The position numbers were made by a program, and so were the translations under genes. Shown here in pieces: positions 11,451-64,000 of a DNA stretch of 64,000 bases. Position 1 is the first letter of the stretch. Each line of letters opens with the position of its first letter. The stretch comes from Polyangiales bacterium (GTDB lineage: Bacteria; Myxococcota_A; Polyangia; Polyangiales; Ga0077539): assembly GCA_044229975.1 (NCBI GenBank), contig JBGARZ010000009.1, positions 91,947 to 155,946 of the forward strand, in the 5' to 3' direction. The notes under the pieces were generated by a model. That model saw nothing but the letters and a program-made list of their open reading frames with translations, searched no databases and was not told the DNA's origin.

Positions 11451-11466
11451 ACGGGCGGGTGGGGAC

Positions 11467-11487
11467 GGGGACGGTTTCAGCTTTTCA
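11467..11487. repeat. Left copy of a 21-bp inverted repeat (ggggacggtttcagcttttca) bracketing a ~3.5-kb insertion
   Basis: Its reverse complement occurs at 15011-15032 (gtgaaaagctgaaaccgtcccc), 21/22 identical. A 21-mer match is not expected by chance in 64 kb. Confidence 0.75.
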
Positions 11488-11571
11488 ACTTGTTAGGGCG
11501 CCGCAGCAAAGTGCTCGGGCTGAACGGGCGTAGGGTGTCCAGCGCTCGCCAGAGCTCCCAGGCAGTCGGGC

Positions 11572-12084
11572 ATGCAACTCGCGACCAACGTGACGAAGGT
11601 GTTGAAGGAGACGGCCGCCGCCTTGAAGGGCAGCGAACGTCGGCGGTTCATGGCGCGGACGGTGCGCGACCTGTTCGACGGCGTGATGAACCGAGCCGTT
11701 CGCGCGCTCGACTGGGACGAGCGGACGTTGCGCAAAGGCAAGAACGAGCTGCGCTCCGGGATCGAGTGCCTCGACGGTCGCTCCGGCGGCGGACGTCCGA
11801 CGGCGCAATCGCGACTGCCGAACCTGATGCGGGATCTGCGCGACCTCGTCGATGGTCAGAGTCAGACCGATCCGCGCTTTCAAACGCAGCGGCTCTACAC
11901 ACGCATCACGTCGGCCGAAGTCCGTCGGCAACTCATCGCGCAGAAGGGGTACACGGACGAGGAGTTGCCGTGTGAGGAGACGATCCGCGTCAAGCTCAAC
12001 GACCTGGGATATGGGCTGCGCGCCGTGGCCAAGACCAAGCCGAAAAAAAGGTCGCCGCGACGGACGCCATCTTCGAACAGATGA
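11572..12084 (+). CDS. Transposase orfA (N-terminal part of frameshifted ISAzo13-like transposase)
   Basis: 170 aa. Ends 3 codons after an A7 run (12043-12049, cgAAAAAAAgg). Confidence 0.6.
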   Translation: MQLATNVTKVLKETAAALKGSERRRFMARTVRDLFDGVMNRAVRALDWDERTLRKGKNELRSGIECLDGRSGGGRPTAQSRLPNLMRDLRDLVDGQSQTDPRFQTQRLYTRITSAEVRRQLIAQKGYTDEELPCEETIRVKLNDLGYGLRAVAKTKPKKRSPRRTPSSNR

Positions 12085-12794
12085 GTCGTGAGCGGGCGAC
12101 GGCCGCGCGTTCGCCCAACGTGCTGGAACTGTCGATGGACGCCAAGGCCGTCATCAAGGTGGGGGAGTTCTCTCGGTACGGCGTCAGTCGCGTGCTGGTG
12201 TTTGCGCTCGATCACGACCACGGGGCCGAGGCGAAGGTGACGCCGTACGGCATCCTGCTCACAGCCCACAACGAGCTGACGGTGTCTCTGGCGACGGGGC
12301 CCGTCACGGCGGACTTCATCGTCGATCGGATCGAGGCGTGGTGGTGCGCTCACCGGGCGCGCTTTCCGGAGGTCGATACGCTCCTTTTGCTTCAGGACAA
12401 CGGGCCCGAAAACCAGAGCCGTCGCACACAGTTTCTGTCGCGGATCGTGGCCTTTGCGCAGGCCCATCGGATCAACGTACGCCTCGCCTACTACCCGCCG
12501 TACCACAGCAAGTACAACCCCGTGGAGCGCTGCTGGGGCGTCCTCGAACAGCACTGGAATGGGAGCATCTTGGACACCGTGGAGACGGTCGTGAACTTCG
12601 CTCAGACCATGACCTGGAAAGGGGTCGCGCCCGTCGTGCAACTGGTCACCACGACGTACGCCAAGGGGATCTCGCTCACGCGTGCGGCGATGGCGAAAGT
12701 CGAGGCGCAGGTCCAGCGTCTCGCGGGCTTGGAAGCGTGGTTCGTGGAGATCCTCTGCGCGCCGAAGGCCGTGCGGGGCGACGGAGCGCACTGA
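12081..12794 (+). CDS. Transposase orfB (DDE catalytic part, in -1 frame relative to orfA)
   Basis: 237 aa with DHDHGAEAKVTPYG...LLLQDNGPEN...YYPPYHSKYNPVERCWGVLEQHWNG. Overlaps orfA by 4 nt. The -1 frame is open from the A7 run, so orfA and orfB together give about 400 aa. Confidence 0.6.
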   Translation: MSRERATAARSPNVLELSMDAKAVIKVGEFSRYGVSRVLVFALDHDHGAEAKVTPYGILLTAHNELTVSLATGPVTADFIVDRIEAWWCAHRARFPEVDTLLLLQDNGPENQSRRTQFLSRIVAFAQAHRINVRLAYYPPYHSKYNPVERCWGVLEQHWNGSILDTVETVVNFAQTMTWKGVAPVVQLVTTTYAKGISLTRAAMAKVEAQVQRLAGLEAWFVEILCAPKAVRGDGAH

Positions 12795-12835
12795 ACGCAC
12801 CAGCACCCCGACGAGAAAACTGCGACGCCCTTACT

Positions 12836-13131
12836 GGGAGCACCGGGTCTCGCCCGCGGATGGACTCCAGGTCGCCGATGAGGTCGCTGCCTCCGTAGAG
12901 GCCGATGCCGTAGAGGTTCTCGCCGCCGCGGTTGCGGAAGAGCGTCCCGCGCGCGGCGTTGACCAGCAGCCCGAAGCGCTCGCTCGCGGAGACCTCGTTT
13001 TCCACGAACTGCGTGTCGCCGCGGGTGCCGTTGAGGTGCATCCCGTCAGCCATGGTGACGCTCCCGCTCGACGTCACCAGGCGTGCCCATGAGGGTCCGC
13101 GAAATCGCTGTCGACAGTGACCATGGCGCAT
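12836..13131 (-). pseudogene. Possible 5' remnant of a gene truncated by the IS insertion
   Basis: Minus-strand ORF (MADGMHLNGTRGDTQFVENEVSASERFGLLVNAARGTLFRNRGGENLYGIGLYGG...) reads protein-like and has high GC. It runs uninterrupted into the right end of the IS, so its original C-terminus is missing. Confidence 0.3.
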
Positions 13132-13227
13132 GCGCCCACCATCAAGGCGTCACCCACCGGACCGCTGGTGACCGTAGCGAGAAGCGTTCTGGCGAGCGAG
13201 GCGGGGCGCGGCTCGATCAGGTGAGCG

Positions 13228-14541
13228 TTACCGAACCCGGATGATCCAATTCACGCTGGCGTTCAGGGGACGACTCTCGCCGCCACCCGCAGCCTGGACT
13301 GACACCGTAACGGGAAGGGGATGACGCGAAACACCCGCGTTACCGTTGTCGTGAAAGTTTCCGCCGGTCGAAAATCCATTTCGCATCTCGCTATTTCCAA
13401 TCGCTGTGCTCGAAAACGGATTTCCTCCCATCACCGCTGACGCCCCATGGTTGTGTGACCCGACCGCGCCAGACTGAACCGTGCCGACCGCGTCACCGCT
13501 CCGTCCTCCCGCTGCCATCGACGTGCGCCCGCCGCGATCTGGGTCACGTCCTGCGTTTAGATCTGCGCCGCGCAGGAAGTAGCCTCGGTAGTCAGGAAGG
13601 TTGAAGGTCAGAGCGTCTGGGGTGCCATGCGCGGTACCGATGGCCGTAAAAAGCCCAGGATAGCCGGTTCGAGAGAGGGGTCGGCCGTCGCAAAGCAACC
13701 AGCCCGAGGGAGGCGTGTCGCCCGCAAACGCAACAACTCCCCCGATCGGTGTCGTGACAGGTGGAGGCGCATCAACCTCCGCCGCCTCTGGGATGATAGT
13801 CACTAGAGCCCCACCCCCGGTCGAAACGACCAACTGCGCAGGGGGGGCAAAGATCCGCCGTCCTGGCGCAGCGCTCGGCGAACTTGCTACGCGTCGGCGA
13901 CACGACATTGACAGAAAGGAGTTGCCGATCATGGTCAGCTGACTCCTGGGTCCGGTAGGTTGATTCCGGCGCGCGTCCCAAAGTTCGCCAGCACACTGGA
14001 ATGCGTCATCGGGAATCACGCGAACGTCCTGAAGGCCGATGCCCGAAGTACCCGGGCCGTTATATGACAGAGCAAGCGTGACCAGATCCGATTCGCTCCC
14101 TGAAATGGTGCGCCTGAAGTGTAGTCCTTGTCGCTCCGCCTCGACGCAAGCTCGATAAGCTTGCATCGCATCAGGCGAGATGGTTTGGGTGAGCAGATCC
14201 TGCTCTTGCGCGGACATACTACGAGTGTCCGAGTTGGTGCACAGCGATCGCGCCAATGTCTCCAACTGAGCATACGACATACGAGCATCGACTCCGAAAA
14301 ACGGAGCGTCGACCATCACGCTTGCAGCGACGTTGGTTTGCGATAGTGACTGGTACGTCGAGCACATCGACTGCACCGCGGAGGAAGCTTGCTGCGCCGT
14401 ACTGCGGGTTCGGACGGAGTTGTACACCCCGAGCCGGAGTTGATCGACGCACGATGTATTGAGATTGTTTTGCGCACAGACCTCCACTGAGGAGATGAAT
14501 AGTGCCAGAGCTGTTACTATGGCGATTCCGAACTTGTTCAT
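13228..14541 (-). CDS. Secreted protein with C-terminal phage tail-collar domain (MdpB / tail-fibre-like)
   Basis: 437 aa. Signal peptide MNKFGIAIVTALALFISSVEVCAQ. C-terminus has the tail-collar motif (FAGDTPPSGWLLCDGRPLSRTGYPGLFTAIGTAHGTPDALTFNLPDYRGYFLRGADL...GSHNHG). GC is markedly lower than the flanks (many AT-rich stretches between 13.2 and 14.9 kb). Confidence 0.7.
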   Translation of the reverse strand: MNKFGIAIVTALALFISSVEVCAQNNLNTSCVDQLRLGVYNSVRTRSTAQQASSAVQSMCSTYQSLSQTNVAASVMVDAPFFGVDARMSYAQLETLARSLCTNSDTRSMSAQEQDLLTQTISPDAMQAYRACVEAERQGLHFRRTISGSESDLVTLALSYNGPGTSGIGLQDVRVIPDDAFQCAGELWDARRNQPTGPRSQLTMIGNSFLSMSCRRRVASSPSAAPGRRIFAPPAQLVVSTGGGALVTIIPEAAEVDAPPPVTTPIGGVVAFAGDTPPSGWLLCDGRPLSRTGYPGLFTAIGTAHGTPDALTFNLPDYRGYFLRGADLNAGRDPDRGGRTSMAAGGRSGDAVGTVQSGAVGSHNHGASAVMGGNPFSSTAIGNSEMRNGFSTGGNFHDNGNAGVSRHPLPVTVSVQAAGGGESRPLNASVNWIIRVR

Positions 14542-15010
14542 TCGCTACTCCGAAGATTGAGTGTTGCACTGGGAGCTTTGATCAGAGACCGACGCTAGTT
14601 GGTCGTCGCACAGGAGTCTTCAGCCGAGCGCACGGAATGTGATGTTGTGTGCACCGAAGTCGAGCACCATGCCTTTGGTATGGACTCAGCAGCCACCCGT
14701 AGCTCGGTGGTAGTCCGCTACGGGCTTCGCCGTCAAGTCCTCAAGTGAGCACGCGACCATCGCTCCTGACAAGCGAAAGTACCAAGTGCGTCTGAGCTTC
14801 TGGCGATACGTCGCAGCCGCAATGCTTCGCCCCCGCCACGCGCCACCTTCCCCCTACCTACGCGACAGCGACGATCGGCTCTTCGCCAACGTAACCCTAC
14901 CCATGTGCCCGCTTGGCGACGGCCGCTCCACGACACAATGATCGCTCTACCATTGGGTCTGGCGAGGCCGCGAAAACAGGTTCAGCTTTTCGCCTCTGCC
15001 CCAGCACAAC

Positions 15011-15032
15011 GTGAAAAGCTGAAACCGTCCCC
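15011..15032. repeat. Right copy of the 21/22-bp inverted repeat. A partial third copy (ggttcagcttttc, 14969-14981) forms a local hairpin with it
   Basis: gtgaaaagctgaaaccgtcccc is the reverse complement of 11467-11487. 14969-14981 can pair with 15013-15026 to give a 13-bp stem. Confidence 0.7.
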
Positions 15033-15038
15033 TCCCCC

Positions 15039-34514: not shown

Positions 34515-35423
34515 TCAGTCGTCGGCGAAGACGGCGTCGAGGGAGACGGCGTCGAGGGCACGGTCGGCCCAGCGCTCGATGCGCGCGACGTCGGTCGTCG
34601 CGAGCAGACGCGCCTCGACGTCGGCAGTCACCGCGAAGCCCCTACGTCGGAGGATGCGCATGAGCAGTCGGGCTTCACCGCGGGCTTCACCGCGGGCTTC
34701 ACCGCGAGCCTCGCCCTCGGCGCGGAGGTCAGCCTTCCACTGCTCCAGCGCCGGGTTCTTGGGGAGTTGATTGATGTCGATCATCGCGGCTCTCCTCACC
34801 TGCTCCAACACCGACGGGTGCAGCACAGACATGATGCCTTCCTGCGTCGCCCGTCGCAATCGTTCGTCCTCTACCGCGTCGCTGCGATCGAGCGCACGTC
34901 GCGCCAGGTCGAGCGCGCGGCGACCCTTGCGCCCCTGCGTCACCCACGCGGCGAACACCGCCATCTCGGGCGGTCCCTTCGCGAGGATCACCTCCGCTTC
35001 GGCGAGCCCCAGGAGCAGCACGGTGGGCACGACGCCCCAACGGGTCGTTCCCTTCTTGTGCATCGCCACGCGCTGAGCCCAGCGCGCGACCGCCGCTGCA
35101 GCCGTGATGACGATGAGCTCTCCGTGGGGCCCGAAGCGATCGCCCATGATCGCCATCGCGAGCGGCCATCGCCGCGCCTTCTCCGCGTCGCGCTGCCGCT
35201 GCACCTCGATGATGACCCAGCGGCGCACCTTGCGAGCGTCCGGGCTTCGCAGCACCAGGTCGGGCGCCACATCGACGGTCAGCGCCGTGCGCAGCACCGA
35301 GTCCTCCACCTCCAACTGCGAGGGGCACGGCGCGTGACCCGTGAGGTCGAGCAGCGTGCGGAGCTGCGACGGATCGTCCCGCAGCCACAGGAGCACCGAT
35401 TCGTGGATCGTCGTAGGTGGCAT
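34515..35423 (-). CDS. Rpn/YhgA-like family protein (PD-(D/E)XK recombination-promoting nuclease / putative transposase) with C-terminal DUF4351-like region
   Basis: About 302 aa from the ATG at 35423 (MPPTTIHESVLLWLR...). Core VIIEVQRQRDAEKARRWPLAMAIM. C-terminal LRILRRRGFAVTADVEARL. Contains an in-frame (EARG)x4 repeat. Confidence 0.65.
   Translation of the reverse strand: MPPTTIHESVLLWLRDDPSQLRTLLDLTGHAPCPSQLEVEDSVLRTALTVDVAPDLVLRSPDARKVRRWVIIEVQRQRDAEKARRWPLAMAIMGDRFGPHGELIVITAAAAVARWAQRVAMHKKGTTRWGVVPTVLLLGLAEAEVILAKGPPEMAVFAAWVTQGRKGRRALDLARRALDRSDAVEDERLRRATQEGIMSVLHPSVLEQVRRAAMIDINQLPKNPALEQWKADLRAEGEARGEARGEARGEARLLMRILRRRGFAVTADVEARLLATTDVARIERWADRALDAVSLDAVFADD
34670..34717. repeat. 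12-bp tandem repeat x3 plus a partial copy (gggcttcaccgc), in-frame inside the Rpn-like gene
   Basis: Copies at 34670-34681, 34682-34693 and 34694-34705, then a diverged copy. Encodes AEGEARGEARGEARGEAR on the minus strand. Confidence 0.85.
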
Positions 35424-48215: not shown

Positions 48216-49958
48216 ATGAACGCCCAACCCGGAGCGCGCAGATCTTCTCCCCCGCCCGCTGGCCCGACGCGCATCGGCCGCTACGACCTCCTCACCGAGC
48301 TCGGCCGCGGCGGCATGGCCAGCGTCTTCCTCGCGCGCGGCTTCGGCAGCGCCGGGTTCGAGCGCCTCGCCGCCGTGAAGGTGCTCCACCGAGAGCTCTG
48401 CCTCGACCCGGACTTCGTGGAGATGTTCCTCGATGAGGCGAGGGTCGCGGCGCGGCTGCACCACCCCAACGCGACGGCCATCATCGACCTCGGGGCCGAG
48501 GGCACGCGGCTCTACATGGTGATGGACTACGTCGAGGGCGACACGCTCCACGCCGTGCAGACGGCGGCCTCGGCGCTGCGTCGCGCGGTGCCGTTGGGCA
48601 TCGCGCTGCGCATCGTGCTCGACGCGCTGGAGGGCCTCGACGCCGCGCACGAGCTGAAGGACATCGACGGCGCCACCCTCGGTCTCATCCACCGCGACGT
48701 CACGCCGCACAACGTGCTCGTCGGGGTCGACGGCTCGGCGCGCCTGGTGGACTTCGGCATCGCGCGCGCGGCCTGTCGCACGGGCATCACCACCGTCGGC
48801 GTCGTGAAGGGGAAGGTGCCCTTCATGGCCCCCGAACAGATCCGCGGGAAGCCCGTCGACCGCCGCGCCGACATCTTCGCGATGGGCGTCACGCTCTGGG
48901 AGACCATGGCCCTGCGACGGTGCTTCCCGATGCGCGAGGGCGCCCCGTTGTCGCGCCTCGCCAACGAGGCGTACCGCCCGCTCATCGAGGTCGCGCCGCA
49001 GGTGCCCGCGGCGCTCGACGACATCTGCCGCCGCGCGCTCGCGTTCGACCCGGCCGACCGCTTCCCCACCGCCGCGGCCTTCGCCGAGACGCTGGAGAAC
49101 GACTTCCGCGGCCACGTCGCGACCCAGCGCGAACTCGGGCAGTTCATGTCCGTGGTGGCGGCCGACAAGGTGCGCCGCGAGCGCGAGGCCGTCCGCACCT
49201 CCGCGTACCCGATGCCCAACCGAACCGTTCCGCCGTCGGCGCTGCGGGACATCTCTCGCACGGTCTCCGTCCGCGAGCCCAGGCCCTCACACGCGCGCGG
49301 GACGCCCGTCCACTCGCTGCGCGCCCCGATGGGCGACGGCCTCTTCGACGGCGAAGACCTCACCGCCGTCGCGCCCTCCAAGCAGCCGCCCTCCATGGCC
49401 CCGTCGCGGCGCCCCGTGACGCTCCCTCCGCTGCCCGAGCGCTCGCCGAGCTCCATCGCCCCGCCGCCTGCCGCGGTCGACCCGTCGTCGGTCTACGAGG
49501 TGGCGACGCAGGCCTTCACGCTCCAGCGCTCGCGCCCGCCGCCCGTCTCCCCGAAGGCCGAGCGCCCCAACACGTTCTGGCCGGCCGCGCCCGTGCGCCC
49601 CGCCAACGACGTCGCGCGCGCATCCGTCGTGCCGCCGCCGTCGCCCCCGGCGCGGAAGCCCGTCGCCGAAGCGCCATCGCCGCCGCCCGTCGTGGTCGCC
49701 GAAGCGCCCGCGGCTCCCGTCGCCGAGGCGCCCGCCCCGGTCGTCGAGGAGCCCGCTCCCGAGCCCGCGGTCCTCGTCGAGCTGACCGTGCACTCCCTCG
49801 CCCCGCCGGCGCTCCCTGCGCTCGTCGTCGAGGCGCCCGTCGTCGTCGAGGCGCCCGTCGTCGAGGCGCCGACCGCTCTCGCCCTCTCGGAGCCTCCCGC
49901 CCCTCCGCGCGGGCTGCTCGCCCTCCTCCGTCGCTGGTGGTCAATGCTCGTGGGCTGA
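48216..49958 (+). CDS. Ser/Thr protein kinase with Pro/Ala-rich C-terminal region
   Basis: 580 aa from the ATG at 48216. Kinase motifs GRGGMASVF, AAVKVL, HRDVTPHNVLV, DFGIA and APE. C-terminus is low-complexity (PAPVVEEPAPEPA...). Confidence 0.85.
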   Translation: MNAQPGARRSSPPPAGPTRIGRYDLLTELGRGGMASVFLARGFGSAGFERLAAVKVLHRELCLDPDFVEMFLDEARVAARLHHPNATAIIDLGAEGTRLYMVMDYVEGDTLHAVQTAASALRRAVPLGIALRIVLDALEGLDAAHELKDIDGATLGLIHRDVTPHNVLVGVDGSARLVDFGIARAACRTGITTVGVVKGKVPFMAPEQIRGKPVDRRADIFAMGVTLWETMALRRCFPMREGAPLSRLANEAYRPLIEVAPQVPAALDDICRRALAFDPADRFPTAAAFAETLENDFRGHVATQRELGQFMSVVAADKVRREREAVRTSAYPMPNRTVPPSALRDISRTVSVREPRPSHARGTPVHSLRAPMGDGLFDGEDLTAVAPSKQPPSMAPSRRPVTLPPLPERSPSSIAPPPAAVDPSSVYEVATQAFTLQRSRPPPVSPKAERPNTFWPAAPVRPANDVARASVVPPPSPPARKPVAEAPSPPPVVVAEAPAAPVAEAPAPVVEEPAPEPAVLVELTVHSLAPPALPALVVEAPVVVEAPVVEAPTALALSEPPAPPRGLLALLRRWWSMLVG

Positions 49959-58207: not shown

Positions 58208-59908
58208 TCACATGCAGCCGTAGAAGCCGCCGCCCTGGTTGCGGCAGAACGTCCCGCCCCGGCACAGCGCCCCGACGTTGGCCGCGTTGCACTGCTCGCA
58301 CCCGCCGGCGCGGCACACCTCGGAGCAGAAGGAGCCGCACGAGCCGCAGTTGTTGGGGTCGTTGGAGATCGCGGTCTCGCAGCCGTTGCCGACCTCGCCG
58401 TCGCAGTTGCCGAAGCCCGTGTCGCAGGTCCCGATCTCGCACACGCCGCTGCGGCACGCCGGCGTCGAGCGCGGGGGCCGGCAAGGGCTGTTGCAACCGC
58501 CGCAGTTGTTGATGTCGGTCTGGCGGTTGACCTCGCAGCCGTCAACCGGGCTGCCGTTGCAGTTCTCGAAGTTGGGCGCGCACGACCCGACGGCGCAGTG
58601 ACCCTCGTCGCAGACGTTGACCGCGTTGGCCAGGGAGCAGCGCACGTTGCAGCCGCCGCAGTTGTTCACCGAGGCGCCGGTGTTGACCTCGCAGCCGTTG
58701 GACTCGTTGCCGTCGCAGTTGGCCGAGTCGAGGTCGCAGCGAAGGATGTGGCAGGTGCCGCTCGTGCACGTCGCCGTCGCGCTGTCGAACTCGCACACGG
58801 TGCCGCAGGTGCCGCAGCTCGCCACGTTGCTGCTCGTCTGCACCTCGCAGCCGTTGGCCGCGTCGCCGTCGCAGTTGCTGAAGCCCGCCGTGCACGTCCC
58901 GAGCGAGCACACGGCGTCGCGGCACACGCCCGCCGCGTTGGCGTAGGTGCAGCGGGTCGGGCAGGTGCCGCAGTGGGTCGCGTCGGTGCGGAGGTTGACC
59001 TCGCAGCCGTTGCTCGGCTCACCGTCGCAGTCGGCGAAGCCCGCGTCGCACGACCCCACCGTGCACGCGCCCGCCGCGCACGCGCCCGTCGCGTTGGCCG
59101 GGGCGCAGCGGGTCCCGCACGCGTTGCAGTTGGCCGCGTCGGTGCGGGTGTTCACCTCGCAGCCGTTGGCCGCCATGCCGTCGCAGTCGGCGAAGCCGGC
59201 GGTGCAGCTCGCGACCGTGCACGCGCCCGCCGCGCACGCCCCCGTCGCGTTGGCCGGAGCGCACGCCATCCCGCAGCCGCCGCAGTGGCTGAGCGTCGTC
59301 GCGAGAACCGTCTCGCAGCCGTTGCTCGCCATGCCGTCGCAGTCGCCGAAGCCCGCGTTGCAGGTGCCCACCACGCACATCCCGCCGGCGCAGGCGGCGG
59401 TCGCGTTGGCCACGGTGCAGCGCGTCCCGCACGCGCCGCAGTTGTTCACGTCGGCGCGCGTCTCGACCTCACAGCCGTTGGACGCCGTCACGTCGCAGTC
59501 GGCGAAGCCCGCGTTGCAGGCGCCCATCGCGCACGCGCCCGCGGCGCAGATCGCCGTGGCGTTGGCGGAGATGCACGGCGCACAGCTCGCGGCCCCGCAG
59601 CCGGTCGACGGGTCGGTCAGCGCGACGCAGCGATCGCCGCACACCCGCTCGCCCGCGGCGCAGCGGAGGCAGGGGCCGCCGTCGAGCTGTGTTCCGCCGT
59701 CGCAGTTGTCGACGACCACGTCGACCGCGTCGATGGCCGGGACGTCGGGCGTGTCGAAGCCCACGTCGAAGCCCGCGTCGAAGCCGATGTCCGTCTCGAC
59801 CTGGACGTCGGCGGTGGCGGCGTCGGGCATCGCGGCGGGGTCGCTGCTGCACGCGGAGAGCGAAGCAAGGGTCGCGACGAGGGTGACCTGGAGGGCGCGT
59901 CGGTTCAT
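58208..59908 (-). CDS. Lipoprotein composed of about 12 tandem myxobacterial cysteine-rich repeats
   Basis: 566 aa from the ATG at 59908 (MNRRALQVTLVATLASLSACSS). Repeating unit is about 38 aa: CxxGFADCDGxxxNGCEVxxxxDxxNCGxCGxxCxxANAxxxCxxGxC. Confidence 0.7.
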   Translation of the reverse strand: MNRRALQVTLVATLASLSACSSDPAAMPDAATADVQVETDIGFDAGFDVGFDTPDVPAIDAVDVVVDNCDGGTQLDGGPCLRCAAGERVCGDRCVALTDPSTGCGAASCAPCISANATAICAAGACAMGACNAGFADCDVTASNGCEVETRADVNNCGACGTRCTVANATAACAGGMCVVGTCNAGFGDCDGMASNGCETVLATTLSHCGGCGMACAPANATGACAAGACTVASCTAGFADCDGMAANGCEVNTRTDAANCNACGTRCAPANATGACAAGACTVGSCDAGFADCDGEPSNGCEVNLRTDATHCGTCPTRCTYANAAGVCRDAVCSLGTCTAGFSNCDGDAANGCEVQTSSNVASCGTCGTVCEFDSATATCTSGTCHILRCDLDSANCDGNESNGCEVNTGASVNNCGGCNVRCSLANAVNVCDEGHCAVGSCAPNFENCNGSPVDGCEVNRQTDINNCGGCNSPCRPPRSTPACRSGVCEIGTCDTGFGNCDGEVGNGCETAISNDPNNCGSCGSFCSEVCRAGGCEQCNAANVGALCRGGTFCRNQGGGFYGCM

Positions 59909-59958
59909 GGCGACCGCGAGCCTATCCCGACCAGCGCACCAACCGGAACCCCTCAACA

Positions 59959-61896
59959 TCACGGCCTGCGCCGCGCCGCCTCCCGCGCCGCCGCTGCCGC
60001 ACCCTCCCGATCACCCAGCGACCGCAGATACTCCGACAGGTTGCGCCACGCCCTCGGGCGCTCGGGCTCCAGGTCGAGCGAGCGCCGCGTCATCACCACC
60101 GCCTCGCGCAGCCGCCCGGCCCGCGCCTCCGCCACCGCGAGGTTGGTCCAGGCCGCGGGGTGATCGGGCCACACGCCCAGCGCAGCCCGCCACAACGGAA
60201 CCGCCCGCTCCAGCGCCCCCCTCCCCTCGCGCGCCCCGGCGGCGAAGAGCGCGGTCGCACCGAGCCGCTGCGCGCCCACCCCGGCAACCTCCATCGGCGG
60301 CAGCCGCGGCAGCACCCAGCGCAGGGCCTCGCGGTCGATCGAAGCGTCCCCCACGGGCGCCCCGATGCGCGCGAACACCGGCGTCTCCCCGGCGCTCAAG
60401 CGCAGCCACGGAAACGCCCGCCCGTCGCCCTCCCAGCGCACACGATCGCCTGCTCGCTCCAGCAGCCAGCGCAGTCGCCCGTCCGCCGTCGACGGCGCTT
60501 CTTCCCTTCGCAGGAGGGAGCGCCGGGCGTCGATCCGTCGCCACGTCGTCGGCTGGTGCAGGTCGCCTTGCGGCAGCACCGTCACGTCGGGGCGTTCGCC
60601 TTCGACCCACTGCGCGTACATCGATCCGCCGCAGGCGTCGTCCGAGCCGCACAGCACCACGGCACGCGACGGAACCTCACCCAGCGCACCGGCACCACCG
60701 GGGATCTCGCTCGCCGCCCACCCGTCCGCCGCGCCCGACCAGTGCGCATCGACGCGCGCCAGCGTCGCGATCACGGCAGCGACAGCGACCACGAGCGAGA
60801 GCTCCGCGCGACGACGATCGGGGAGGCGCGTGAGCAGCGACCCGAGGGCCAGCGCGGCGAGCACCGCCATCCCTGCTTCGGTGACGAAGAGGGTCTGGCG
60901 GTCGGTGGTTCCCATGGGGTTGATGGCGACGGCGTAGGCGAGGTCGACGATGGTCACCGCGAGCAGCGGCCACGCCGCGCGACGACGCGCCGCAAGCGCA
61001 GCGCCGACGAGGGCGAGCAGCGACAGCGGGATGCCCAGGTCGTCGACGAGGACACGCAGCGCGGCGCCGAGGTCTTCGGGCAGGCGCCACGCCACCATGA
61101 TGCGATCCGCGTAGCTGGCGCGGATGGAGCGCGCGGTCAGGTGTTCGATGAAGCGCGCGGGCGTCTGCGGATCGCCCCAGTCGATGGGTCCATCGCGGAG
61201 GGAGGCGAGCGGGAGATAGGCCACCGTGAGGGCGCCCACGAAGGCGAAGGCTACGAGCGCGGCGACGGTTCGCGGGCGGCGGAGCGAGGGCCACGCGACG
61301 AGGCAGAGGGCGACGAGTGCGGCGGGTCGACTGGTGGTGTGGGTGGCGAGTGTGAGGCCGAGCGCGAGCGCGGCGAGGCGCGCACGAACGGGCGCGGGTG
61401 CAGCGCCTTCGGTGAGGGTGAGCGCCACGAGGCCGAGGAGGAGTGAGCCCGCATAGACCTCCATGGCGGTGGCCGCGCGCAGCACCGTGGACGAGGCCAT
61501 GAGCGCGGCGGCGGGGAGCGCCGAGACGGCGAGGCGAGCGGACGGAGCGAGGCTCGGGAGAAGACGGAAGGCGAGGACCGAGGCGCATCCGCACGCGAGG
61601 GCCATGAGGGCGGCGACGGCGAGGTTGGCGCGGAAGGCGAGGTCGCCGATGGGGACGAGCATCGCGAGGCGGACGACGAGGAGGTCGCCGGGGAAGCCGG
61701 TGGGGTGCGCGACGTCGAGGAGGAAGGAGGCGGCGGTGAGCTCACCGGCGTCGCGGAAGGCGACGGAGGGGGCGGCGCGGAGGGTGAACCAGAGCGCGGC
61801 GGGGATCGCGCCGAGGGCGAAGGCCCGCTGCGACACCCTACAGGGCGCAGTTGGTGAGGATGAGGTTGACGTCGGCCTCGATGACGCGCGAGTCAC
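59959..61896 (-). CDS. DUF2723-family polytopic membrane protein (glycosyltransferase-like) with C-terminal TPR repeats
   Basis: About 645 aa. N-terminus LGAIPAALWFTLRAAPSVAFRDAGELTAASFLLDVAHPTGFP matches the DUF2723 start; about 11 TM helices. C-terminus ERAVPLWRAALGVWPDHPAAWTNLAVAEARAGRLREAV is TPR-like. Start codon uncertain (GTG at 61896). Confidence 0.65.
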   Translation of the reverse strand: MTRASSRPTSTSSSPTAPCRVSQRAFALGAIPAALWFTLRAAPSVAFRDAGELTAASFLLDVAHPTGFPGDLLVVRLAMLVPIGDLAFRANLAVAALMALACGCASVLAFRLLPSLAPSARLAVSALPAAALMASSTVLRAATAMEVYAGSLLLGLVALTLTEGAAPAPVRARLAALALGLTLATHTTSRPAALVALCLVAWPSLRRPRTVAALVAFAFVGALTVAYLPLASLRDGPIDWGDPQTPARFIEHLTARSIRASYADRIMVAWRLPEDLGAALRVLVDDLGIPLSLLALVGAALAARRRAAWPLLAVTIVDLAYAVAINPMGTTDRQTLFVTEAGMAVLAALALGSLLTRLPDRRRAELSLVVAVAAVIATLARVDAHWSGAADGWAASEIPGGAGALGEVPSRAVVLCGSDDACGGSMYAQWVEGERPDVTVLPQGDLHQPTTWRRIDARRSLLRREEAPSTADGRLRWLLERAGDRVRWEGDGRAFPWLRLSAGETPVFARIGAPVGDASIDREALRWVLPRLPPMEVAGVGAQRLGATALFAAGAREGRGALERAVPLWRAALGVWPDHPAAWTNLAVAEARAGRLREAVVMTRRSLDLEPERPRAWRNLSEYLRSLGDREGAAAAAREAARRRP

Positions 61897-62335
61897 CGGT
61901 GGCGCGAACGCCCGTGCAACGGGTGACGACGTGCAGGCTGTCGCTGGTCGTGGTGGTGGTGTCGACGCAGGTTCCGCTGGCGGCGAAGGTGGTGGCGCCG
62001 ATGTCGAAGGTGGCCTGCGGGGACTCGCGGGCCTGGCCGAGCGCAGGGATCGGGATGCTCAGGTGGAGGTGCTTGAACTCATCGGCGCCTGGAGACTCGC
62101 GGGCGATGTCGACCTCCCAGCGGTTGGCCACCTGGATGCAGCTCCCGTTGAAGCCGGAGCCTGCTTCGAGGGTGGTCGAGCGGGCGCTGAAGTCGAAGCC
62201 CATCCGGGTGGGGGTCTGGCCGGCGATGGTCGAGGTCAGGATCGCCGTCCCCTGAGCGCTCAACGCATCGCTGGCACAACCAGAGAGCAGCGCCAGAGAG
62301 GCGGCGAGAAAGGTCGGGGCGGAGAAGTTCTTCAT
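61838..62335 (-). CDS. Hypothetical lipoprotein
   Basis: About 166 aa from the ATG at 62335 (MKNFSAPTFLAASLALLSGCAS), with GGAGAGG 9 nt upstream. 3' end overlaps the start of the DUF2723 gene. Confidence 0.5.
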   Translation of the reverse strand: MKNFSAPTFLAASLALLSGCASDALSAQGTAILTSTIAGQTPTRMGFDFSARSTTLEAGSGFNGSCIQVANRWEVDIARESPGADEFKHLHLSIPIPALGQARESPQATFDIGATTFAASGTCVDTTTTTSDSLHVVTRCTGVRATGDSRVIEADVNLILTNCAL

Positions 62336-62385
62336 GGGGTTCATCCTCTCCGTGAGCGCGAGGCACGGAGCGAGCCACTGTTGCG

Positions 62386-63168
62386 ATGTGCTGGGATGCC
62401 GAGGGTTGTAGCAGAGATCGCGCGGTCGGCGTGGGAGGGGGTTCGCGGTCGGGGGTGTCAACGGCCGTGCACGGTGGGCGGTGGTTGGCGCTACCTTCCG
62501 CCGCAGTGCCCACGCCGAGGTCTCAGCTCGCCGCCCGCCTTGGTCTGGTCGTCGTGGTGGCGGTGGTGCTGCTGGTCGCGCAGCGGATGGGGTTGCTGGC
62601 GCAGTTCGCCGACCTTGGGAGGGCGAGGGCGACGCTGGTGGGGCTCGGGGTGTGGGGCTACGTGGCCTTCGTCGCGGCGTACGCGATGTTCCAGCCGTTC
62701 GGGGTTCCGGGGACGGTGTTTGTCTGGGTGGCGCCGCTGGTGTGGCCTTGGCCGGTGGCCTTCGCGCTGTCGATGACCGGGACCATGGCCGCGAGCGTGG
62801 TGGGGTTCTCGTTCGCGCGCTTCGTGGCCCGCGACTGGATCGCGCCGCGCATCCCGGAGAGGTTCCGCCGCTACGACGAAGCGCTGGCGGAGCGGGGGTT
62901 CCAGACGGTGGCGTTGTTGCGGTTCATCTTCTGGATGCCGCCGCTGCTGCACGCGTTCTTCGGGGTGTCGAAGGTGCGCTTCGCGACGCACTTCTGGGGA
63001 TCGCTGGTGGGGTATCTGGTTCCGCTGTTTCTGGTGAGCTACTTCGGGCAGCGGCTCTTCGACCTGGCGAAGCGGGTGCCGGTGGCGGGGTGGGTCGGGC
63101 TCGGCGCAGCGACGGTGGTGGTCGGGGTCGCGGTGTGGCTGGTGCGACGGCGGCGAAACCAGGGTTGA
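62386..63168 (+). CDS. TVP38/TMEM64 (DedA-like) family membrane protein
   Basis: PFGVPGTVFVWVAPLVW...AFALSMTGTMAASVVGFSFARFVARDW...ALLRFIFWMPP is typical of the SNARE-associated/DedA fold. The true start is probably an internal GTG/ATG near 62560-62600. Confidence 0.65.
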   Translation: MCWDAEGCSRDRAVGVGGGSRSGVSTAVHGGRWLALPSAAVPTPRSQLAARLGLVVVVAVVLLVAQRMGLLAQFADLGRARATLVGLGVWGYVAFVAAYAMFQPFGVPGTVFVWVAPLVWPWPVAFALSMTGTMAASVVGFSFARFVARDWIAPRIPERFRRYDEALAERGFQTVALLRFIFWMPPLLHAFFGVSKVRFATHFWGSLVGYLVPLFLVSYFGQRLFDLAKRVPVAGWVGLGAATVVVGVAVWLVRRRRNQG

Positions 63169-63171
63169 CCC

Positions 63172-63312
63172 TGGGGAGGGGGGTGGGTTGACCGTGGGGG
63201 CGGGGGTGGGTTGAGGCTGGGGAGGGCAGAGGGTCGAGGGTGGGGACGGGGGTGGGTTGAGGGTGGGGACGGGGGTGGGTTGACCGTGGGGAGGGTAGAG
63301 GGTTGAGGGTGG
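63172..63312 (+). repeat. G-rich ~23-bp tandem repeat array, about 6 copies (consensus cgggggtgggttgasggtgggga)
   Basis: Six successive units with G-tracts of 3-5 on the plus strand, immediately after the DedA-like stop. C-rich on the minus strand. Confidence 0.85.
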
Positions 63313-63506
63313 GGTAGCGGTCAATCGATCTGGTAGCGTCGACCCCATGCGGGTCGCGTGCGTGGTCGTGGTCGCCTTGAGCGCGTGGGGATGCGCCGGC
63401 ACGGCGACGAGCCGGGGCGCCGACGCGGGGGACGACGGGCCGGGTCTCGACGCGCCCGCCGCCGCGTGGAGCTGCGTCGTCGGGCCGCTGCCCCGCGCGC
63501 CGTCCG

Positions 63507-64000
63507 CTACTTCCCCCTGAGCTGTCGCCGCTTCAGGTCGACCAGGTCGCGCGCCACCCGGTACACGGTGCGCCATCCCGCGCTCTTGCTCTGCCCCGCG
63601 CGCCGCGGAACACACTCGATGGTCACCACCTTCGAGCGCACCCCGCGTTGCATCGCCCTGATCGGGAACTCGAAGTTCAGGAAGAACGTATCCGGCACCA
63701 GCTCGCGCGCGCTGAACAGCTCCCGCTTGAACAGATACGGCCCGTCGGAGCGCATCGTCACCCCGTGCACCGCGCGGATGAGCCCGCGCACGCCCGCCGA
63801 GAACACCTTCCGCAACAGCCCATCATCCCGGTCGCGGTACACCGAGAACACCACGTCGGCGTCCCCCTCCCCCGCCGCCGCCAGCAACACGTCGAGCTCC
63901 CCCGGCGGAATCTGCCCATCACACGGCAGGAACGTCACCCAAGGCCGCGTCGCCGTCGTCACGCCCGCCTTCAGCGCCCCGCCGATGCCGCGGTTGGCAC
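63507..64000 (-). CDS. Glycosyltransferase family 2 (dolichyl-phosphate/polyprenyl-phosphate sugar transferase-like), 5'-partial at window edge
   Basis: The C-terminal half of a GT2 fold is visible (VVFSVYRDRDDGLLRKVFSAGVRGLIRAVHG..., FKRELF). The N-terminal DXD region would lie beyond 64000. Confidence 0.55.
   Translation of the reverse strand, partial: ANRGIGGALKAGVTTATRPWVTFLPCDGQIPPGELDVLLAAAGEGDADVVFSVYRDRDDGLLRKVFSAGVRGLIRAVHGVTMRSDGPYLFKRELFSARELVPDTFFLNFEFPIRAMQRGVRSKVVTIECVPRRAGQSKSAGWRTVYRVARDLVDLKRRQLRGK

Follow-up and report, generated by a model that had tools for sequence, protein, structure and literature searches.

A gene for a membrane protein with a DedA/VTT domain, a G-rich tandem array, a small open reading frame (ORF) and part of a family-2 glycosyltransferase (GT2) gene lie in this order toward the end of the window, by which we mean the whole stretch of DNA that was analysed, 64,000 nucleotides long. 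Their coordinates, and those of other features discussed, are given in Table 1. The start codon of DedA is uncertain: the longest ORF encodes 260 amino acids and is identical to NCBI protein P0122, and the proteins of relatives are called at 204-227 amino acids. Two DedA homologues (P0021 and P0043) carry source names that place the window in a Labilithrix-like group of myxobacteria. Three other DedA proteins (P0006, P0007 and P0010) are 71-74% identical, and their loci are non-syntenic and uninformative on the spacer.

Table 1. Features at the DedA-GT2 junction and elsewhere; positions are those of the window unless a related locus is named.
Feature	Position	Strand	Basis or comment
DedA/VTT-domain membrane-protein gene	62386..63168	+	Pfam PF09335, E=1.5e-14
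Palindrome CCAGGGTTGACCCTGG (6-bp stem, TTGA loop) at the left end of the array; its loop contains the DedA stop codon	63159..63174		
TGA stop codon of the DedA/VTT gene, within unit 1 (GGGTTGA)	63166..63168	+	ORF and unit alignment
G-rich 23-bp tandem array, seven head-to-tail units	63162..63322	+	repeat finding and consensus matching
Lineage-private segment: array and 144 bp of largely unalignable sequence	63150..63466		homology to L137 stops at 63149 and resumes at 63467
57-codon ORF, remnant of a 93-94-aa secreted-protein gene	63347..63520	+	
3' part of the family-2 glycosyltransferase (GT2) gene, convergent with DedA	63507..64000	-	PF00535
ISAzo13-family DDE transposase, split in two ORFs	11572-12084 and 12081-12794		PF07592, E=4e-58
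Phage-tail-collar-domain protein, in the 11461-15038 segment	13228-14541	-	
42-bp minisatellite GGATCGCAACCGGGATGCTCGCACGGACCTTCGTGAAGGTTC and variants, directly 3' of the DedA stop codon	L001 3051-3191; L137 4376-4533		

Several features lie elsewhere in the window. A 3.6-kb segment at 11461-15038 is bounded by imperfect 55-nt inverted repeats (11461-11515 and 14984-15038; 75% complementary), and is probably an insertion sequence or small composite transposon that carries a passenger gene. The ends of the segment are G-rich (GGGTGGGGACGGGGACGG) and adjoin the stop codon of the gene on either side. Between the array units and the left inverted repeat of this element there is a match of 14 nt (11457-11470; E=0.4), probably by coincidence. 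At 2505-2690, inverted 9-bp tandem triplets, gggccgcaagggcgcaagggtcgcaagg (at about 2510-2538) and cccctgcgccccttgcgcccttgcggcc (at about 2609-2636), surround a 70-bp AT-rich stretch and are followed by a perfect 17-bp tandem repeat of 3.3 copies at 2631-2686; this structure is intergenic and unusual. On the minus strand, an ORF with high GC3 contains long coding tandem repeats at 58679-59577, whose periods are 156, 312 and 468 bp. They resemble cysteine-rich repeat proteins that are common in myxobacteria, and are found also in the related locus L137, where BLAST gives multiple offset alignments. Short tandem duplications of 12-18-bp units, with 95-100% matches, occur at 34529-34558, 34669-34706, 49822-49863 and 59753-59785. 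These duplications suggest frequent recent slippage in this genome.

Anatomy of the tandem array

Tandem Repeats Finder called one array at this site, at 63162-63314, with a period of 23, 6.7 copies, 80% matches and a score of 159. It also called higher-order periods of 46 and 69 bp, of which 69 bp is the best-matching lag (87% matches). When the unit consensus, GGGTTGASSSTGGGGASGGGGGT, was matched with at most three mismatches, six matches were found (at 63162, 63185, 63208, 63231, 63254 and 63277), all in register, and 100 shuffles gave none. A seventh, degenerate unit starts at 63300 and has decayed past 63314. There are no gaps between units, as the start-to-start spacing equals the unit length. 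The tandem repeat is real and far beyond chance, and its head-to-tail unit, between 10 and 100 bp in length, makes the array a bacterial minisatellite by kind. An earlier note on this DNA had described about six copies of a 23-bp unit at 63172-63312. The repeat was correctly recognized, but it comprises seven units and is wider by roughly 10 bases on each side. Consensus matching detected no second copy of the array within the 64 kb.

The 161 nucleotides of the array consist of 102 G, 15 C, 17 A and 27 T (63% G and 9% C). Unit columns 1-4, 6-7, 11-15 and 18 are invariant, and columns 8-9 toggle jointly between CC and GG. Within the units, the GGGTTGA and TGGGG cores do not vary except for one T to C change, which gives unit 4 the sequence TCGA. 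Units 4 and 5 are one base apart, and the remaining pairs differ by three to nine bases. An inverted copy, GGTCAA, follows the last unit. The array is non-coding: units of 23 bp shift the reading frame from copy to copy, and stop codons are present in all three plus-strand frames.

The earlier note placed the array downstream of the DedA-like gene and before the minus-strand GT2 gene. These flanks are right, but the stop codon of DedA actually lies inside unit 1, and the plus-strand 57-codon ORF intervenes on the other side. The same TGA recurs in all units that carry TTGA (all but unit 4) and, because 23 is not a multiple of three, it falls in all three frames. Because every TTGA-bearing unit repeats the stop codon in this way, a change in copy number leaves the DedA protein intact, which removes one obvious cost of repeat expansion. 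The palindrome that spans the stop codon is predicted to form a hairpin in transcripts of both strands, and it is absent from relatives.

The junction in related lineages

We compared the junction with syntenic loci from metagenomes and from one NCBI MAG. These loci share a gene order that consists of a TMEM260-like/TPR protein, a 165-aa protein, DedA, the spacer, GT2, a hexapeptide-repeat protein and SQS_PSY (squalene/phytoene synthase family). Identity to the window is 80-95% in the flanks, and extends to the divergent promoter region 5' of DedA; the DedA-GT2 spacer is unalignable.

The closest relative, L137, is 92.3% identical to the window over 59000-63149 and 95.5% identical over 63467-63998, with no homology between these segments. 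Taken together with L001, it has flanks that are 90-95% identical, and homology breaks at 63140-63149 and returns at 63467-63507. In L137, the DedA stop codon is followed directly by 3.8 copies of an unrelated 42-bp minisatellite unit, next by an insertion of 2.2 kb, and finally by an intact gene for a secreted protein of 94 aa. L001 has the same 42-bp repeat, in 3.4 copies, and lacks the small secreted-protein gene. The 42-bp minisatellite is a second, independent repeat birth at the DedA-GT2 junction.

The last residues of DedA are also altered in L001 and L137 (RRARRTA and RRARRKP, versus RRRRNQG in the window). The insertion in L137 (4540-6550) contains two minus-strand ORFs, of 217 and 119 amino acids and with no Pfam match on record, and is absent from the window.

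A different situation is found in the L002 lineage, which comprises L002, L008, L009 and L138-L144. At the homologous stop codon, its sequence is cagGGGTGAGGTGGGGATTGGGGGccagtgGCGTTGACCGag, that is, one unit and the start of a second (about 1.4 proto-units), and its BLAST homology with the window extends to 63194. This single proto-unit allele is identical in all 10 contigs of the lineage, which come from at least nine samples. The earlier suggestion of a variable-number repeat is supported in part: copy number differs between lineages that are about 8-10% diverged, with some 1.4 proto-units in one, 6.7 copies in the window and a replaced site in L001 and L137, and the allele is invariant among these ten contigs. 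The DedA-GT2 spacer of L002 also contains a near-perfect palindrome (L002 1999-2184) with 72-nt arms that are 99% complementary, a 42-nt loop and G5/C5 tracts. Neither this palindrome nor the 42-bp unit of L001 has a copy in the window, and L003 has no repeat whatever at the DedA-GT2 site. The palindrome region is also seen at the ends of L008 and L138-L143, and several short-read contigs stop just inside its left arm.

Searches beyond these loci revealed no kin of the array. A 30-nt two-unit pattern had no matches in 185,579 reference genomes and the JGI metagenome contigs, and the plasmid collection gave no match. A 20-nt unit junction gave three single matches (Streptomyces, Pontibacillus and an alphaproteobacterial MAG), which is about the number expected by chance. 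In metagenomes, GGGTTGA at a strict 23-bp period recovered at least 120 unrelated tandem repeats, with periods of 23 bp or 7/8 bp. Among the matches listed, only L127 and L031 share 14-16 nt with a unit of the array (GGGTTGACCGTGGG); their contigs have 56-57% GC, and we judged the resemblance to be a coincidence. The array is private to this lineage and unconserved.

The small ORF next to the array is probably a pseudogene, to judge from its alignment. The ancestral frame is kept by no more than its 13 C-terminal residues (VGPLPRAPSATSP); its middle part aligns in a different frame, and the signal-peptide region is missing. The gene from which it derives is intact in L137 (94 aa) and in L003, and is cut by the contig end in L002. 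The small secreted-protein gene has thus decayed in the lineage of the window.

Origin of the array and its possible effects

The array is probably a young, lineage-private, non-coding minisatellite that was amplified from a G-rich seed at the end of DedA, in an unconstrained spacer, and that has no conserved function. Its local origin is evident from the L002 lineage, in which the homologous stop codon lies in one unit, with the beginning of another behind it. The seed would have been a G-rich stretch made up of a Gly codon, the TGA stop codon and some 16 nt 3' of it, and after these part of a second copy. It was most likely amplified head to tail to seven copies by replication slippage or unequal recombination. 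Growth appears to have taken several rounds, because units 4 and 5 differ by a single base, other pairs differ by three to nine, and a 69-bp super-period is present; one of these rounds would have duplicated a three-unit (69-bp) block.

The spacer presumably lost constraint while the downstream small secreted-protein gene was being destroyed. Relaxed constraint is suggested by the small ORF, which is what frameshift and 5' truncation have left of a gene that relatives keep intact. Moreover, Tandem Repeats Finder called perfect tandem arrays elsewhere in the window, at 2631-2686, 34669-34706 and 49822-49863. Given these other young tandem duplications and a different minisatellite at the same site in a sister lineage, both the site and the genome appear to be prone to such events. 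The units have diverged by about 20%, versus about 8% between lineages, so the array is either older than we have assumed or fast-mutating. Whereas the anatomy of the array, its restriction to one lineage, its local birth and the loss of the adjacent gene are shown by these sequences, we infer the slippage mechanism, the neutrality of the array and all of the effects on transcription that are considered below.

Both strands have predicted properties that could affect transcription. On the DedA sense strand, DNA and RNA are predicted to be foldable into several G-quadruplexes. The transcript of the opposite strand is predicted to be unstructured, rich in C and poor in G, and Rho would be expected to load on it. 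Any present effect is most likely a by-product that damps read-through between the convergent DedA and GT2 genes, and the most plausible side effect, on these models, would be a strand-asymmetric transcription barrier between them. Effects through Rho and through quadruplexes may both be by-products that were possibly co-opted.

One alternative is that the array serves as a Rho-dependent terminator for the convergent GT2 operon, in which minus-strand read-through RNA would load Rho and stop before it becomes antisense to DedA. Read-through from the GT2 stop codon (63507, minus strand) meets the C-rich complement of the array 185 nt on. In 78-nt windows, the C/G ratio of this RNA, which the earlier note did not take up, peaks at 13 (52 C and 4 G), with regularly spaced C, which is the highest value in the 64 kb. 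All windows of the 64 kb, on both strands, with C/G above 5 fall in the array; for windows of 100 nt, a ratio of 3.5 marks the 99.9th percentile. The 181-nt minus-strand RNA is predicted to be almost unstructured (-22.3 kcal/mol, z = -0.8), except that the GC-rich hairpin CCAGGGUCAACCCUGG at its 3' end (63174-63159), with a 4-nt loop, appears in both the minimum-energy and the centroid structures. RhoTermPredict looks for a 78-nt rut site in which C exceeds G and C occurs every 11-13 nt, followed within 150 nt by a pause hairpin, defined as a GC-rich stem with a 4-8-nt loop (PMC6407284). Both elements are found on the minus strand of the array; however, they discriminate poorly, because 48% of 78-nt windows in this genome, which has 72% GC, already pass C/G >1. 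No intrinsic terminator (a GC hairpin with a U-tract) was found in or beside the array or between the convergent genes, which favors the Rho reading. The sole terminator-like match in the region is inside the DedA coding region and within chance expectation. Against a Rho role, the array is unconserved, and the sequences of relatives at this site lack C/G asymmetry. In addition, selection for such a role is indistinguishable from a by-product of the G-richness of the other strand. We regard termination by Rho as unlikely to be the reason for the array.

Another alternative is that quadruplexes or R-loops on the DedA sense strand form a barrier. Quadruplexes in the non-template DNA or in the nascent RNA, with an R-loop on the C-rich template to stabilize them, would stop or slow RNA polymerase past DedA, protect the 3' end of the mRNA, or stall replication and so promote recombination. 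The quadruplex potential itself is considerable by prediction. The earlier note had counted 18 or more G-tracts; there are 23 of at least three G, and every unit keeps at least three of them. The mean G4Hunter score over the array is 1.88, with 25-nt windows reaching 2.48; of all stretches in the 64 kb with a score of at least 1.5, the two longest lie within it. A search for canonical motifs gave three that do not overlap. By the formal rule, which asks for at least four G-tracts, each of three G or longer and joined by loops of 1-7, and for a G4Hunter score of about 1.5 or above, the array is predicted to form G-quadruplexes. When ViennaRNA takes quadruplex energies into account, the minimum-energy structure of the plus-strand RNA of 63140-63360 has five quadruplexes and an energy of -140.8 kcal/mol, versus -72.7 kcal/mol without them. 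All three approaches therefore give high values, in agreement with the earlier statement that multiple quadruplexes could form. For DedA, moreover, the G-rich strand is the non-template strand, an arrangement that at least one report describes as favorable to R-loop and quadruplex formation (PMC12455608).

However, same-composition shuffles fold nearly as well under quadruplex energies (-111.6 ± 16.8 kcal/mol, z about -1.7), which means that the potential comes from composition and not from arrangement. The earlier note also proposed that the array could act as a transcription barrier or a recombination hotspot, which our comparisons do not support. The array is unconserved among relatives, and its 23 G-tracts are only marginally more than the 19.2 ± 1.9 retained under random substitution (P=0.035, a weak test since substitutions are non-independent). 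The G4Hunter score does not exceed what random substitution would give (P=0.11). We see no good evidence in these comparisons that selection maintains quadruplex potential. The sense-strand flanks that follow about 40 other stop codons in the window have a mean G4Hunter score of 0.03, so this genome has no general habit of placing quadruplexes after genes; the two next-best flanks are the inverted repeats of an insertion sequence. There is also no U-tract 3' of the array, so the usual release signal is absent, and the abundant repeats of this type in Xanthomonas and Nostoc have no findable regulatory role (PMC4692102). A quadruplex or R-loop barrier as the function of the array is, in our estimation, quite improbable.

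The slight excess of retained G-tracts, with at least three in every unit, is one counterpoint to neutrality, although the test behind it is weak. Another is that three related lineages have an unusual structure at this junction, namely the array, the 42-bp minisatellite and the palindrome with 72-nt arms, which could reflect selection for a barrier. Under this proposal, the DedA/GT2 junction would be under recurrent selection for some barrier, and the array would be a de novo strand-asymmetric insulator, acting through quadruplexes or R-loops on the plus strand and through an exceptionally strong Rho-loading site on the minus strand, and sister lineages would use the other two structures to the same end. 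We consider this distinctly unlikely.

The units might instead be protein-binding sites or tandem promoter elements, in which a -35-like TTGACC or TTGAGG in each unit controls the small ORF. Such a role would fit the near-invariance of the GGGTTGA and TGGGG cores (one T to C change) and the inverted GGTCAA after the last unit. However, no sigma-70-like promoter, with -35 and -10 hexamers 16-18 nt apart, was found in 62300-64000, and a 17-nt spacer after TTGACC leads to the next TTGACC and not to a -10 box. A spacing of 23 bp does not keep the units in helical phase, the 64 kb contain no other instance of the motif, and the supposed target is a pseudogene remnant. These points make binding or promoter functions very unlikely. 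Finally, a 374-codon minus-strand ORF (62491-63615) reads the array as a proline-rich repeat, and the best-matching period of 69 bp is a multiple of three, but this ORF lies antisense to the conserved DedA gene along its full length and reaches into the end of GT2, as is usual for shadow ORFs in high-GC DNA, and the segment is missing in relatives, so that a coding repeat is scarcely credible.

Other classes of element were rejected. The array is not a CRISPR array, in that its units are contiguous and there are no unique spacers. It is not a dispersed element such as a REP, a MITE or an insertion-sequence end, as no further copies occur in the 64 kb, the reference genomes or the metagenomes. 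A known structured RNA was likewise rejected: Rfam searches of 62000-64000 gave no match in the array, and two matches elsewhere were at chance level (E = 0.33 and 0.81).

Significance and comparison with known systems

As a young minisatellite that probably lacks a conserved function, the array is of small direct importance: it adds one case to the known bacterial minisatellites and could serve at best to type strains. It has modest value as a well-documented repeat birth, in which a sister lineage still has the single-copy seed and the stop codon of a gene was amplified along with the rest of the unit. It also serves as a caution that counts of G-quadruplex motifs in high-GC genomes include neutral junk. 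If the insulator proposal were true, the array would be a transcription barrier that arose de novo from slippage, and it would offer a natural test of one DNA segment that acts via quadruplexes in one direction and via Rho in the other.

Bacterial minisatellites, or VNTR loci, consist of tandem units of about 10-100 bp and are used for MLVA typing, as with mycobacterial MIRU-VNTR. The array resembles them in its imperfect head-to-tail units, its intergenic position, its higher-order block duplications and the differences in presence and copy number between lineages. In contrast to the usual minisatellite, it is strongly strand-asymmetric (63% G) and has grown from the stop-codon region of a gene. 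It also differs from MIRUs, which are present at many loci, in that it occurs at one.

Immunoglobulin class-switch regions, and the mitochondrial CSBII element with its quadruplex-dependent termination, are G-rich and R-loop-prone on the non-template strand; they are eukaryotic or organellar and have dedicated machinery. By analogy, the array has tandem G-clusters on the non-template strand and would yield a G-rich RNA if transcribed, but nothing at the array points to programmed recombination or priming. On its minus strand, the array resembles rut sites, in that the predicted transcript runs for more than 80 nt, rich in C and poor in G, with neither structure nor translation, and then forms a GC hairpin. 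Natural rut sites, however, are not tandem repeats and rarely approach a C/G ratio of 13, and the feature in the array is unconserved.

The G-quadruplex repeats of Xanthomonas and Nostoc (Rehm et al. 2015) have 7-nt units, GGGNATC or GGGGA(C/T)T, are present at hundreds of loci per genome and prefer four units (PMC4692102). Like them, the array is G-rich, tandem, prone to quadruplex formation by prediction, non-coding and variable between close relatives, and in neither case has a regulatory role come to light (PMC4692102). The position is shared too: both lie on the sense strand, no more than 50 bp from a stop codon, with ORFs of the same direction on either side (PMC4692102). The array differs in its unit, which is 23 nt long (GGGTTGASSSTGGGGASGGGGGT) with three tracts and is not a heptamer, and in its distribution, as it occupies one locus in 64 kb and is absent from the other genomes searched, in contrast to genome-wide dispersal. 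With these differences, the Xanthomonas and Nostoc heptamers are the nearest described G-rich relatives of the array.
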